Made by a program: the position numbers and the translations under genes. Of a DNA stretch of 12,547 nt, positions 1,641 through 12,469 are shown one piece after another. The stretch is taken from IMG/VR virus record IMGVR_UViG_2675903434_000005. One strand, 5' to 3'. The notes beneath the pieces were generated by a model. It was not told the DNA's origin and searched no databases. It worked only from the letters and a program-made list of their open reading frames with translations. How positions within the stretch are numbered: position 1 is the first letter of the stretch; every line of letters begins with the position of its first letter. This DNA is from a virus. Its lineage: Duplodnaviria > Heunggongvirae > Uroviricota > Caudoviricetes.

Positions 1641-4112
1641 TTAAGAATCAGCCTGACTCGGGATCAGTTTTTGCCAGATAACTGAAACGTATTTTGCCTG
1701 GTAACGGGCGTCATCAAGTGCATTATGGCGCTCACCTTCGAATGGAATAGCCGTTCTGGCATCGAAGTCTATGGCTTTCCCCAGCTCAACGATTGTGCGT
1801 ACATCGCGATCGTTGTAGTAACGCCACGGGCAGGGGATCCCCTGCCGTTCGTATGAACGGCGCAAAATCGTGTTGTCGAAGTTGGCTCCATTTCCCCAGA
1901 CCTGAACAAAAAATTCACCGGAGTTTTCGTCGATAAATTCCCACAATTGTAACAGTGCATCATCTAACGGGATTTCATCGGTCATAATGGCAGATTGCGC
2001 TTCGCGTGATTGCTTAAGCCACCATTTAATGGTGTCCCGATCAATGACTCCGCCAGCAGTTTCCAGATCGATAGTCTTACTAAATTCCGGTCCCATATCT
2101 CCGGTTTGCGGATCGAAAAATATTGCACCTATTGAGATGATCGGGGCATCAGGATTTTTTCCCATGGTTTCAAGGTCGATCATTAGATGGTCACACGTCC
2201 TGCTGGTGGATGTGATTTCTTGATGACCGTTCACCTTAATTGAGTGATCTGCCGTCTCGCCAGTTTCATTATCGCTATCGTGATGCTGATTGCCGCCAGT
2301 GTTCTCCTTGTGTGGATGTTCAGCGCCTTCCATTTCCTCCGGATCATCTTCCTGAACTTCAATCTGATACTCTTCATCGAATGTTTCCTGGTATGTTGCG
2401 TCGCCCATTACCGCGCCACAATCAGGGCAGTTGCCGCCGCCGGTCTGACCGCAGGCGGTGCAGACTTTTTCCACTTCCTGTTGCGCCACTGATTCAGGCT
2501 GTTTCGTTTCTGGCTCGTTTTGTAACGCATTTGGGCTGTTTTGTTCCGCTTTTTGGTAGTTCCGTTCCGATTCATGCTGGTTCTGGTTCACAGAATCGCG
2601 GGTCTGGATCCCCTTAACCCATTTCGGATCATTCGGGTCACTAATCCCTTCAACAAATTCACCACGTGATGCAGCAAGCAACTTATCGGCGTCAGGCTGG
2701 ATGATATTGGCTGCCTGCATAATTTTGTTTACTTCGTCAGCGGTAACTTTTATCGGCTCTGGTTGTTCTGAATCTTCAGCGGTATCTACATTTTGCGGTA
2801 AGCCCGTGTATGTGCCATTTTTTCGGGCAAAATATTCTTCTTTTGTGATTTCAGTGGCGCCAGCAGCCAGTGCCTTATCCAGACCAGAAAGTTTGTTTGC
2901 GCGACCGTATTTTTCTCCGTCCTTATCTGCGAAGAGGAAATAGAACGGCCCCTCACGCTCTACAGATGGTTCAGCTTCCGGCGCGGTTTCATTTTTTGGG
3001 ATATCAGATACCTCAGTTTCCACTGCATCAGTTTGTGTTTCTGATGACTGGAGAACATCAACAGTGCCCAGGTCTGTTTCTTCATTCTCAAACACGCCCT
3101 TTGTCGTCAGGTATTCGCAGATATATTTGTTCAGTGCTACGGGATCTTTGTGAATGTCGATCGGACGCTCACGGACAAGGCCAAAAATAGTTTGGCGGTC
3201 GTAGCGAAGGGCATCAGGCTGTTTGCGCATTGATGCCGAGATACGCTTCCAGTCTTCGCGGTCGTTGTCGATAACTTCATTTTTTGCCCAGCGATGGATG
3301 CTGCCGTCAATGTTTCCGGCATCCACATCACCAGGCCAGAGAGCGTAGGCCAGTTCGTCATCCAGTGTTTTCCATGTCTGCTTGTATTCGCGATGAATGG
3401 CAGCAATGACCGGGCTGATTTTTCCTGTTGAATTTTCAGTGTACTGTTGATTGGCTCTGGCGCGGGCGAGATCAACAACAGACGTGTATTTTCCGGTTTC
3501 CTTGCGTTCACCTTCGCGACGTTTTTTCCAGATGCGCATCTCTGCCTGAATTTCGGGCCATTTAGCACCAGGAATACATTTATGCTTAACCCACCCAATG
3601 GCGTGCAACTTAAGCTCCGGATACATGGCGTTAACTTCTGGCATTTTCATCAACGCTTCAACGATATGTCCGTCGAATGTTGCCATGTCTTCCTGCAACA
3701 ATTCCTGTGCGCTAATAACCATATCAACGGTGATGTTTTCACATGTGTCGAACTTAACCATGACAGCGTTCTGTACTTCAGGGGCCAGCTTGTCAAAAGT
3801 GACGTTCATCGGATCGGATTCAGTCTCAACCGGGACAAAAGAAGCAGACTCCTCATCCCAGCGGTTTTCCTGCATATATTCAGCATCCCATGAATCGAGG
3901 GCAGGGCGGGGTATGCCAGGTTTATCCTCGCAGACAATAAATTTATAAGCGCAGTCCTGAGCAGCCGGATAATGTTCCAGGAATTGCCAGTGAAATTTTG
4001 CTCGAGCACGGCGTTCGTCGCCAGCTTCAATGGCTGTGGCTACAGCCACAGCGCCTTCTTCCCTTGTTGCCAGTTCGTCAGGAATAGCGGCGCAAATAAA
4101 GACTTTACTCAT
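1641..4112 (-). CDS. Exonuclease, intact YdfE-like: RecE-like N-terminal region, central CxxC-x7-CxxC zinc ribbon, C-terminal DEDDh 3'-5' exonuclease domain
   Basis: ORF track 1641..4148. Start set at ATG 4112 (MSKVFICAA), which has a GAGG Shine-Dalgarno about 10 nt upstream. C-terminal ~190 aa show DEDDh motifs: MIDLETMG (Exo I), WGNGANFD (Exo II), HNALDDARY (Exo III). The middle holds CTACGQTGGGNCPDCG and Asp/Glu-rich linkers. Occupies the position of ydfE in the Qin gene order. Confidence 0.8.
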   Translation of the reverse strand: MSKVFICAAIPDELATREEGAVAVATAIEAGDERRARAKFHWQFLEHYPAAQDCAYKFIVCEDKPGIPRPALDSWDAEYMQENRWDEESASFVPVETESDPMNVTFDKLAPEVQNAVMVKFDTCENITVDMVISAQELLQEDMATFDGHIVEALMKMPEVNAMYPELKLHAIGWVKHKCIPGAKWPEIQAEMRIWKKRREGERKETGKYTSVVDLARARANQQYTENSTGKISPVIAAIHREYKQTWKTLDDELAYALWPGDVDAGNIDGSIHRWAKNEVIDNDREDWKRISASMRKQPDALRYDRQTIFGLVRERPIDIHKDPVALNKYICEYLTTKGVFENEETDLGTVDVLQSSETQTDAVETEVSDIPKNETAPEAEPSVEREGPFYFLFADKDGEKYGRANKLSGLDKALAAGATEITKEEYFARKNGTYTGLPQNVDTAEDSEQPEPIKVTADEVNKIMQAANIIQPDADKLLAASRGEFVEGISDPNDPKWVKGIQTRDSVNQNQHESERNYQKAEQNSPNALQNEPETKQPESVAQQEVEKVCTACGQTGGGNCPDCGAVMGDATYQETFDEEYQIEVQEDDPEEMEGAEHPHKENTGGNQHHDSDNETGETADHSIKVNGHQEITSTSRTCDHLMIDLETMGKNPDAPIISIGAIFFDPQTGDMGPEFSKTIDLETAGGVIDRDTIKWWLKQSREAQSAIMTDEIPLDDALLQLWEFIDENSGEFFVQVWGNGANFDNTILRRSYERQGIPCPWRYYNDRDVRTIVELGKAIDFDARTAIPFEGERHNALDDARYQAKYVSVIWQKLIPSQADS

Positions 4113-4750: not shown

Positions 4751-4808
4751 AAAAAGGGCGGCAGAGCAGTCACGGAGTAAAACTGATACCGCCAAACGTC
4801 ACCAGAAA
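4751..4808 (-). ncRNA. dicF: DicF small regulatory RNA (antisense regulator of ftsZ and other mRNAs)
   Basis: Minus-strand sequence TTTCTGGTGACGTTTGGCGGTATCAGTTTTACTCCGTGACTGCTCTGCCGCCCTTTTT matches the E. coli DicF sequence as I recall it, including the 3' U-tract terminator. It lies between the ydfC-like gene and dicB, as in Qin. Confidence 0.7.
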
Positions 4809-8539: not shown

Positions 8540-8962
8540 GTGGCAAAAGTTTTTACACAAGAAGAGCGAGAAAAAATTAAAGGGCAGGTTGTTGAACTCG
8601 TACGCCAGAGTGGGCGTGAGACGTTACGGCAACTGGAAGTCAAGACAGGTGCGACAAGATATCTGATGAGCGTTCTCGCAAGAGAGCTGGTTGCCAGCGG
8701 CGATGTATACAACTCCGGCTACGGGTTATTCCCCTCTGAACAGGCGCGTAAGGACTGGCAAAACGCCCGCAAAAAACTCTCGAGGGCAAAGGTGAAGAAA
8801 CCTGCTGTGGTTGATCCGGACCTTATCTGGTCATCACCTGACGGAGAAATACGTCGCTACGACAGTCGCCTAAACATAATCTGTCGCGAGTGCCGGAAGA
8901 GTGAAGCTATGCAGCGTGTACTGGCTTTCTATCAGGGTAATTTTCAGGAGGCGGTACTGTGA
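8540..8962 (+). CDS. Hypothetical phage protein (140 aa), GTG start
   Basis: ORF track 8540..8962. GTG at 8540 is preceded by GGAGGG; protein-like composition, C-terminal CRECRK; the stop abuts the next gene region. Confidence 0.6.
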   Translation: MAKVFTQEEREKIKGQVVELVRQSGRETLRQLEVKTGATRYLMSVLARELVASGDVYNSGYGLFPSEQARKDWQNARKKLSRAKVKKPAVVDPDLIWSSPDGEIRRYDSRLNIICRECRKSEAMQRVLAFYQGNFQEAVL

Positions 8963-9019
8963 GTGAAATTAGCTATCAGGCTTCAATTACCGCTGGCATT
9001 CGCATCAAAGGAGAGGAGC

Positions 9020-9376
9020 ATGGAAATAAAACCAGAGGATGAGTTAAGCAATATCGTTTTATTTCCGGTAAAAGAGGATGACCCTCGTAATCAGGTTAAT
9101 TTTCTTTATGAGCCATCGGAAAGACCATATTGTCATCACGCCTCTGTCCGGGTTGACGAAAAAGAGCGTCAGGTCCGCTGTAAAATCTGCGGTGCAGTTG
9201 TGGAGCCATTTGACTGGATGCTCTCTGTGGCGAAAAGAGAAACCAGACTGGCAGATGATGTAAGGCTCTTGCGTCAGGAGGAGCGGGAAAGGCGAAAAAA
9301 TATAGAAAAGCTAATTCAGATTGAGCGTAACGCGAAAGCGCGGATACGCAGGGCGACAAAATCCAGAACTGAATAA
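9020..9376 (+). CDS. Hypothetical protein with CHH...CxxC zinc-ribbon-like motif and basic coiled-coil tail (118 aa)
   Basis: Part of ORF 8963..9376. Start chosen at ATG 9020 (MEIKPEDE), with GGAGAGGAG immediately upstream. Motif PYCHHASVRVDEKERQVRCKICG. Confidence 0.6.
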   Translation: MEIKPEDELSNIVLFPVKEDDPRNQVNFLYEPSERPYCHHASVRVDEKERQVRCKICGAVVEPFDWMLSVAKRETRLADDVRLLRQEERERRKNIEKLIQIERNAKARIRRATKSRTE

Positions 9377-9469
9377 TTAAATTTAGCTCTGTTAAAAATT
9401 TAATCCTTAACCGGAGGGATTTCTGCACCCTCAGAACATCAGGAGGCCGCCCGAAAGGGCGGTAGTTAA

Positions 9470-9652
9470 ATGCGAAAGTTTAAAATAATTATTGAAACGG
9501 GAATAGCCGGTGGAGATTTCGAGGATGAATTCGAAGTGGATGATGATGCGACGCCTGATGAAATACATGACGAAGCAAAAGATATTTTCTTTAACTACTG
9601 CAATTACTCATATCACGAAATAAAAGACGAAGAGGAAGAACAAAATGGCTGA
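9470..9652 (+). CDS. Small highly acidic protein (60 aa, about 21 Asp/Glu against 5 Lys/Arg)
   Basis: ORF track 9470..9652. An AGGAGG Shine-Dalgarno lies 23 nt upstream, with a GC hairpin between it and the ATG. Confidence 0.55.
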   Translation: MRKFKIIIETGIAGGDFEDEFEVDDDATPDEIHDEAKDIFFNYCNYSYHEIKDEEEEQNG

Positions 9653-9821
9653 TTTTGGTTCAACTAAATACAACGTCAGTTTTGAAGAATGGCATGAACT
9701 GTTAATGGACTATGCAGAGTTACGTGGTGGCAGTGCTGCTGATGCTGAAGCATGGCGTGATGATTATGAAGCAGGAAAAACTCCGGTCGAAGCATATTGT
9801 GATGAGTGGGGCGATGAATGA
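9645..9821 (+). CDS. Small acidic Trp-rich protein (58 aa)
   Basis: Translated by hand: MADFGSTKYNVSFEEWHELLMDYAELRGGSAADAEAWRDDYEAGKTPVEAYCDEWGDE. GAGGAAG Shine-Dalgarno about 7 nt upstream; overlaps the upstream stop and ends in an ATGA overlap with the next ORF. Confidence 0.5.
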   Translation: MADFGSTKYNVSFEEWHELLMDYAELRGGSAADAEAWRDDYEAGKTPVEAYCDEWGDE

Positions 9822-10134
9822 GCGAGGTTAATTATCAGGAAGGGCATGAAACGGCGGGGCAAGCAAAAACAGTGGCATGGCGATATCGCTACGTGAAAAA
9901 AAAGGCGTTACGGACTTTCAGGGGAAGTAGTGGTCTGGTGACTGGAAATATGTACCGAAAAAAGAGGATTGTAACGACAGGCCGAACTATGAAATTCAGG
10001 CCTTATTCACTGCCCCGCCAGTCCCGGTTACATCAGAAGAACTGGTTAAAGCTGTGCACTTTTATGAACAACTAAAACGCGAAAATCCACCAGCATCCGG
10101 AAACCTGATTACAGATTCCCAGATAAGGCAATGA
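9818..10134 (+). pseudogene. Disrupted coding region: ATG-initiated frame and stop-coupled frame differ by -1 (frameshift pseudogene or programmed frameshift)
   Basis: Frame A (ATG 9818, coupled to the upstream stop) becomes Lys/Arg-rich and ends at 10075. The -1 frame holds a protein-like 67-codon stretch (WSGDWKYVPKKEDCNDRPNYEIQALF...DSQIRQ) ending in TGA 10132-10134 coupled to a downstream ATG, but has no start and follows TAG 9928-9930. A_AAA_AAG heptamers are phased in frame A at 9898-9904 and 9958-9964. Confidence 0.4.
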
Positions 10135-10567: not shown

Positions 10568-10686
10568 GACTGCGGGTGCTTGAGGCTATCTGTCTCAGGC
10601 ATGAACACCAAAAGGCAGATAGAGAAAAGCCCCAGTTAACATTACGCGTCCTGCAAGACGCTTAACATTAATCTGAGGCCATATCT

Positions 10687-10746
10687 ATGCGACACATAGA
10701 GATTAGCCTCTTACGGACCGAAAGGTCAAGGAGAAGCAGGCTATGA
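10687..10746 (+). CDS. Short leader ORF translationally coupled to hok (mok-like, 19 codons)
   Basis: ATG 10687 with GAGG upstream; its TGA stop (10744-10746) overlaps the hok ATG (10743-10745) as ATGA. Confidence 0.35.
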   Translation: MRHIEISLLRTERSRRSRL

Positions 10747-12459: not shown

Positions 12460-12469
12460 NNNNNNNNNN
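12460..12469. other. Run of 10 ambiguous bases (assembly gap or mask)
   Basis: Literal n x 10 in the sequence. Confidence 0.99.

Follow-up and report, generated by a model that had tools for sequence, protein, structure and literature searches.

How can a ribosome find a start codon that lies 23 nt beyond its Shine-Dalgarno (SD) sequence, with a stable G-C hairpin standing between the two? The question is raised by a short intergenic site in a 12,547-nucleotide stretch of viral DNA (IMG/VR record IMGVR_UViG_2675903434_000005), which was analysed as a whole and is referred to here as the window. We took an SD-start distance of more than about 13-15 nt as too long for direct use, and a spacing of about 5-11 nt, counted with the hairpin looped out, as functional; the corresponding values at this site are 23 nt and 7 nt. 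On balance, the comparative evidence set out below suggests that positions 9441-9472 are a split, or noncontiguous, translation-initiation region of the kind found at genes 38 and 25 of phage T4, and that this region is portable. The example is new; the mechanism is already known from phage T4.

We identify the window as a lambdoid E. coli prophage of the Qin/Rac type. A 1.2-kb query taken from it (8900-10100) is 99.9% identical to Escherichia phage vB_EcoS-640R1, whose record opens with integrase, excisionase, exonuclease VIII, DicB and DicF, runs through the repressor, DicC, cII, replication protein O, LygF/DUF977 and a hypothetical protein to the site, and continues beyond it with DUF7167, two small ORFs, hok/sok, rem, YdfU, RusA and Q. 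By this gene order the site is part of the rightward early operon, with the replication genes before it and the nin-like genes after it. The gene immediately downstream is annotated in RefSeq as a 'DUF7167 family protein'. When the whole window was searched against Rfam 15 at gathering thresholds, no family was found at the site and only the DicF and sok RNAs were found elsewhere (Table 1), in keeping with a Qin-type prophage that has a hok/sok module. A permissive E-value search of 9250-9600 gave SscA as its best match, which at 18.5 bits (E = 1.2) falls below the threshold of 60. The known prophage small RNAs AgvB/AsxR and PasA-D were set aside as candidates, since they are located near the late promoter and lysis genes and not at the site. 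A promoter scan of the window found nothing at 9441-9472, and a full-text literature search with the hairpin sequence matched no paper.

Table 1. Positions of the sequence features discussed, numbered from the first letter of the window.
Feature	Position	Strand	Remarks
DicF RNA (Rfam)	4756-4807	-	76.7 bits
Upstream ORF, 137 aa, hypothetical	8963-9376	+	Weak zinc-ribbon hit
AU-rich hairpin CTGAAT / AATTAA / ATTTAG at the left edge of the cassette, over the upstream stop	9369-9386	+	Homology among upstream contexts begins here; from minimum-energy folds
Stop codon TAA of the upstream ORF	9374-9376	+	Inside the cassette, at its left edge
Conserved left half (T)TAATCCTTAACCGGAGGG	9400-9418	+	SD-like GGAGGG at 9413-9418
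UCCU	9404-9407	+	Can pair weakly with AGGA 9441-9444
'Second hairpin', corrected position	9414-9432	+	GAGGG 9414-9418, 9-nt loop, CCCTC 9428-9432
Shine-Dalgarno sequence AGGAGG	9441-9446	+	Flush with the stem base; read directly from the sequence
Spacer hairpin CCGCCC-GAAA-GGGCGG	9447-9462	+	6 G-C pairs, −12.4 kcal/mol
5' arm CCGCCC	9447-9452	+
Loop GAAA	9453-9456	+
3' arm GGGCGG	9457-9462	+
Spacer TAGTTAA, 7 nt	9463-9469	+	A/U-rich, single-stranded; final TAA in frame
DUF7167 gene, 60 aa	9470-9652	+	Gene served by the putative initiation region in the window; ORF list, Pfam PF23768
sok antitoxin RNA (Rfam)	10574-10745	+	106.7 bits
Run of ten N, near the right end	12460-12469		Assembly gap or masking

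The layout of the site is that of the original prediction: its AGGAGG 23 nt ahead of ATG 9470 and its 6-bp GC stem with a GAAA loop match base for base, and the stem folds with the energy listed in Table 1. This becomes −14.4 kcal/mol with an optional seventh pair, G9446-U9463. Pair probabilities in the hairpin are close to 1.0 in all ten of the sequence contexts that were folded. The hairpin is contained wholly within the SD-ATG spacer, and the last G of the SD alone can join the stem, so that the SD core and the AUG are left free. In the same ten contexts the SD is partly accessible, with a weak 4-bp alternative pairing to the upstream UCCU, and its duplex with the 3' end of 16S rRNA is predicted at −10.3 kcal/mol. 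A long-range helix between 9381-9388 and 9463-9470, present in the first fold, was discarded; it is lost when other upstream or downstream variants are folded. The 22-mer of SD plus hairpin occurs once in the window against an expectation of 0, but GC-rich 6-bp hairpins are not in themselves rare, with 7 distinct examples there compared with about 2 in Markov simulations. The arrangement of SD, hairpin and start is essentially unique in the window. One further hit was returned by the scan, on the minus strand, and its weak AGGA lies within a coding region; it is likely to be spurious.

The start codon itself is well placed. The in-frame TAA at the end of the spacer (9467-9469) directly precedes ATG 9470, which is therefore the earliest possible start of the ORF. 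Position 1 of the Pfam DUF7167 profile (PF23768) aligns to residue 2 of the ORF, and from codon 3 onwards the differences between copies are synonymous third-position changes; by these two sequence criteria ATG 9470 is validated as the genuine DUF7167 start. Reading of the region as part of some other coding sequence, either a small ORF or a −1 frameshift extension through the cassette, was rejected, as there is neither a canonical start nor a slippery site and the indels of natural variants break the frame.

The SD and hairpin do not belong to this one gene. They form the right end of an intergenic cassette of about 95 nt (9369-9464), of which more than 170 copies were gathered by two anchored scans of viral contigs and by further searches that started from three of the downstream proteins. 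Across five aligned contexts the sequence is conserved between about 9400 and 9464, and some E. coli genomes align only over 9398-9464, with other genes on either side. Between cassettes that have different downstream genes, homology ends 0-2 nt past the stem (9462-9464). On the left there are at least eight different upstream genes, and homology starts at the stop codon, all of them ending ...CTGAATAATTAAAT. In different phages the genes on either side of the cassette are thus non-homologous, as they are for a mosaic-junction linker. A start codon follows 6-11 nt 3' of the stem in 174 loci, which represent at least six unrelated ORF families: DUF7167 (MRKFKIII...; stem-ATG distance 7 nt), DUF4014 (6 nt), Ea22-like (MTELTKE...; 8-9 nt), a 43-aa ORF (8 nt), MQEIKENI... 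(9 nt) and M(G/E)ITKERL... (11 nt). The last of these (MGITKERL or MEITKERL) has a GGAG of its own 3' of the stem and is an exception to the single-SD pattern. Some sources name the DUF4014 homologues P0085, P0127, P0166 and P0181 'sugar / O-polysaccharide acetyltransferase inhibitor', which hints at the function of this one cassette-served family.

The cassette is common. Its 67-nt core is present in 2372 of 5426 complete E. coli genomes (about 44%), at 3011 places and in up to five per genome, and is annotated in none of these places. The cassette is also found in a few plasmid records of E. albertii and E. fergusonii, and in Shigella and Citrobacter. Outside these two genera and Escherichia, a scan of genomes for the pattern returned mostly unrelated terminators. 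By our reading of the gene order, the copy in phage ArgO145 lies in the early-left (Ea22) region. Of the prophages of K-12 MG1655, the three that were checked (Rac, Qin and DLP12) have no cassette, and K-12 ribosome-profiling data are for this reason uninformative. Two records stand out by their labels. A copy 100% identical to that of E. coli is carried by Actinobacillus phage vB_Apl-pPE4 (PP818812.1, 11344-11413), where the surrounding sequence matches the window at about 92% identity; this is unexpected for the host Actinobacillus pleuropneumoniae. A 3-kb contig of a metagenome-assembled genome labelled Collinsella sp. (L282) has the E. coli cassette (about 1284-1304) together with the DUF7167 gene, and is probably a mis-binned fragment of an E. 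coli prophage.

At three loci, L146, L172 and L280 (Citrobacter braakii), the cassette is arranged differently: a convergent cassette on the minus strand stops some 11 nt short of the hairpin, which has no plus-strand start after it. In such a setting the hairpin may have a different use. The convergent cassette at these loci has a 184-aa ORF (MNKINVLGVIIKHYK...) and a second ORF; the loop is AAAA in L146 and L172 and GAAA in L280. The hairpin is also a place where sequences are joined, with the breakpoints of at least nine different junctions, several of them independent, and several mobile-element insertions at or within it. In L426, L434, L436 and L432 the ends of foreign DNA are inserted either directly at the foot of the stem on its 5' side or within the loop, and one inserted end, ...AAGTTGGCAGCATTACC, resembles a terminus of IS1.

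What is held constant among these copies is informative about both the SD and the stem. In 147 loci collected with a search anchor that excluded the SD, the GGAG core is invariant despite variation in the flanking bases and in the A-rich stretch before the SD (the variants being AGGAGA, AGGAGT, CGGAGG, GGGAGA and AAGGAGA). Natural variants with a mutated SD (AGGAAG) exist, and in two loci (L181 and L214) the SD and the 5' arm have been lost by recombination and the gene retained. The hairpin falls into 30 haplotypes in 155 loci, in which the non-Watson-Crick cells of the stem comprise 51 G-U and 11 A-C; the G-U haplotypes are frequent, and those with A-C are rare, each being represented by one to three loci. 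Strand-symmetric neutral mutation would yield equal numbers of the two, and the excess of G-U therefore fits a stem formed in the plus-strand RNA. In the 5' arm the only changes that reach an appreciable frequency are those that preserve pairing. One full compensatory change, from G:C to A:U, is seen in L136, and the A-C intermediate has also been observed; some haplotypes weaken the stem (−2.6 to −4.6 kcal/mol). In a formal covariation test 97.4% of cells were paired, which is no better than in shuffles, because the copies are on average 94% identical. Much of the apparent conservation may be mere recent shared ancestry, and a search for more distant DUF7167 homologues, which returned almost exclusively E. 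coli, gained no extra divergence. We consider a real stem plausible from these patterns and do not claim phylogenetic proof of it.

The loop is less constrained. The GNRA loop originally noted is present in the window as GAAA, which is also the usual form, and is not strictly kept: GGCA, GAGA, TAAA and AAAA occur as well. These variants indicate that a GNRA loop is dispensable, and they speak against a protein that recognises the loop specifically.

A natural rearrangement indicates which parts of the cassette matter. The two halves are separated by a 70-aa ORF in 7 of 80 DUF7167 loci and in the Stx phage ArgO145 (2758-2970 in L176, the ArgO145 locus; also in L195 and six other loci). The SD of the inserted ORF is the GGAGG of the left half, in contiguous arrangement with a 7-nt spacer, so that the cassette joins two initiation regions. 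Left over 3' of the inserted ORF is a minimal intercistronic form of 33 nt, in which a stop codon is followed by TGTC, AGGAGG, the hairpin, TAGTTAA and ATG. This form precedes both DUF7167 and DUF4014 genes, with a post-hairpin spacer of 6-7 nt, implying that the SD and hairpin are a self-contained unit for which the upstream hairpin is dispensable.

Homologues that have no cassette provide a further comparison. DUF4014 proteins with the same N-terminus are then preceded by contiguous SDs, for example AAAGGAGAGTGAT-ATG or AAATGGGAGTGAT-ATG, and Ea22-like proteins by contiguous AAAGGAGAGTGAT-ATG, TTGAGGATTAATAA-ATG and TAAGGAGTAACAC-ATG. For these two families the contiguous SD-ATG spacers measure 4-8 nt, compared with 6-9 nt after the hairpin in the cassette copies, a match that is expected if the hairpin is effectively skipped. 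A second common junction with a contiguous SD, AAAGGAG(A/C)GTGAT-ATG, is also found ahead of DUF4014 and Ea22-like genes (L356, L352, L443, L444 and L446); here the TGA stop of the upstream gene lies one base ahead of the ATG.

Two other hairpins lie further upstream. The hairpin at the left edge of the cassette varies in its 3' arm, to ATTCAG, in which a G-C pair replaces G-U, or to ATCCAG, which gives a mismatch. A second hairpin had been predicted at 9409-9413 / 9423-9427, which is 5 nt away from its real position (Table 1). As a functional element it finds no support: the common variant GGATGG breaks a pair, compensatory changes are not seen, the hairpin is missing from the 33-nt form, and in ArgO145 the GGAGG that corresponds to its GGAGGG arm is the ordinary SD of another gene. 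It is probably incidental, to judge from these variants, and is built partly from a relic SD.

The closest parallels are genes 38 and 25 of T4, the two natural SD-hairpin-AUG cases that are usually cited. The SD-AUG distance is reduced from 22 nt to 5 in gene 38 and from 27 nt to 11 in gene 25, and disruption of the stem lowers translation of both (PMC3014915 section 29; PMC7297116 section 9). The sequence features of this type, namely the SD distance, the spacer hairpin, the residual spacing and a genuine start, are all found at the cassette site. Measured along the sequence, the SD is too far off to function (22 and 27 nt in T4, 23 nt in the cassette), a stable hairpin lies wholly between SD and AUG, the effective spacing is comparable (5 and 11 nt in T4, 6-7 nt in the window and 6-11 nt across the cassette copies), and in both cases the genes are phage genes expressed in E. 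coli. There are differences, however. The two share no sequence homology, and a temperate lambdoid prophage is compared with a T-even phage. The SD of the cassette abuts the stem without a linker, and its last base can pair into the stem, a geometry untried in T4. The cassette serves at least six gene families rather than forming the leader of one gene. Finally, mutagenesis and probing stand behind the T4 cases, and sequence comparison behind the cassette.

Other structured sites offer partial likenesses. In E. coli rpmE and thrS a hairpin that is a repressor operator separates the SD from an AU-rich enhancer upstream of it (PMC7297116). As in the cassette, a stable stem-loop is tolerated within the ribosome-binding region and organises its parts (PMC7297116), but it is upstream of the SD in these genes and between SD and AUG in the cassette, where no binding protein is indicated. 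Intrinsic terminators share the G-C-rich stem and the stable tetraloop, and an identical 21-mer forms terminators in unrelated bacteria. In these, however, the GGAGG pairs with a downstream CCTCC that is followed by a T-run; the GGAGG of the cassette has no such pairing, and its 3' flank is A-rich (TAGTTAA, TAAGAA, TAATGAAAA), without a U-tract and with a start within 6-11 nt. In a lambdoid nut site, just past the early promoter, boxA is followed by boxB, a hairpin whose pentaloop is GNRA-like. This identity was rejected for the cassette hairpin, which has no boxA-like sequence before it and a variable tetraloop, and which is about 2.5 kb or more into the operon, after the replication genes. 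Linker sequences at the junctions of mosaic lambdoid genomes are usually discussed only as recombination substrates in the literature on modular evolution. The cassette is like them in being a short conserved segment that reaches from a stop codon to just before the next start, between non-homologous genes, and differs from them in its specific, structured ribosome-binding anatomy.

Could the hairpin have some purpose other than the spacing of SD and start? The chief role of the hairpin might be that of an RNA element between cistrons, whether as a block to 3' exonucleases, as a structure that processes or stabilises the upstream message, or as a decayed terminator. Translation would then be weak or would proceed from the A/U-rich spacer independently of an SD, and AGGAGG would be incidental or a standby site. 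The ordinary terminators of unrelated bacteria to which the same 21-mer belongs (GGAGGCCGCCCGAAAGGGCGGCCTCC, then a T-run) would suit such an origin, as would the A-rich spacers, the non-significant covariation and the hairpins between convergent genes in L146, L172 and L280, which have no plus-strand start after them. We nevertheless think it unlikely. A U-tract is found in no variant, the tail in the window being UAGUUAAAU and those of other variants A-rich, and the terminator scan of the window gave nothing at the hairpin, as anticipated in the original prediction, which had thought a terminator improbable for the same want of a U-tract. The invariance of the GGAG core amid varying neighbours also tells against an incidental AGGAGG, and in every co-directional case, over at least six families, a start codon lies within 6-11 nt. 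The homologous genes have strong contiguous SDs elsewhere, so they are not generally SD-independent.

If an SD is needed, it could instead be a different one. The only other SD-like stretch near the ATG is in the loop and 3' arm (AAGGG/GGGCGG), 7-12 nt from the ATG, and the hairpin would then be inhibitory, keeping the expression of accessory genes low. The sequence concerned, GAAAGGGCGG, pairs with the anti-SD at −8.3 kcal/mol, is at a canonical distance from the ATG and resembles the contiguous junction AAAGGAGAGTGATATG of homologues, and the recombinants L181 and L214, which have it without AGGAGG, keep an intact gene. It is, however, buried in the hairpin, and its exposure would cost 12.4-15.5 kcal/mol, more than the duplex returns; the perfect AGGAGG flush with the stem and the invariant GGAG would be left unexplained, and the restriction of the 5' arm to pairing-preserving changes is the opposite of what relief from an inhibitory stem would produce. 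We regard this explanation as decidedly improbable. That leaves a protein or DNA site, either an operator for an RNA-binding protein of phage or host (a translational repressor, or boxB-like antitermination) or a 16-bp palindrome recognised in DNA by a protein or by recombination. GNRA-type hairpins are indeed protein targets in lambdoid phages, as boxB illustrates, and the breakpoints and mobile-element insertions at the hairpin would agree with a recombination site. The chance of such a site nevertheless seems very small: the loop is not strictly kept, a boxA-like partner is lacking, the early promoters are kilobases away, no Rfam family matches, and the prevalence of G-U over A-C points to a constraint on RNA rather than a symmetric one on DNA.

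The split initiation region accommodates most of these observations. The original prediction that the hairpin restores a functional SD-ATG spacing is favoured by the genuine start, the invariant GGAG, the 6-11 nt spacing, the want of an accessible rival SD and of a terminator tail, and the contiguous SDs of homologues. Against it stand the natural variants with a weakened stem, a mutated SD, or an SD and 5' arm lost and the gene kept, the family that has its own GGAG 3' of the stem, and the SD that abuts the stem and can pair into it; with covariation that is not significant, the reading is probable rather than proven. In the mechanism that we propose, the 30S subunit would pair with AGGAGG, and the neighbouring 16-nt G-C hairpin would remain folded and be looped out of the mRNA track. 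The AUG, although 23 nt off in sequence, would then come to within about 6-7 nt of the SD duplex, not counting the width of one helix. We infer both that the hairpin persists on the ribosome and that AGGAGG is the SD actually used. Any gene joined 6-11 nt past the stem could be translated from the cassette, which would in effect be a portable ribosome-binding site.

A bolder suggestion, which we offer tentatively and with considerable doubt, is that the cassette is a natural insulated as well as portable ribosome-binding site, in which the hairpin fixes the geometry of SD and start and shields initiation from the flanking sequences. If this is true, an accessory gene recombined just 3' of the stem would be expressed at once, and the 3' edge of the hairpin would be a preferred docking point for gene exchange among lambdoid prophages.

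Confirmation of the split initiation region would add a third natural SD-hairpin-AUG region to the two of T4, this one from temperate lambdoid phages and common to several unrelated genes. Gene finders and models of ribosome-binding-site strength that assume a contiguous SD spacing would then mis-score such starts. With one initiation region in front of many genes, the cassette would provide a natural test bed for the way in which ribosomes handle a folded spacer, and possibly a model for the continued expression of genes newly joined in mosaic phage genomes.
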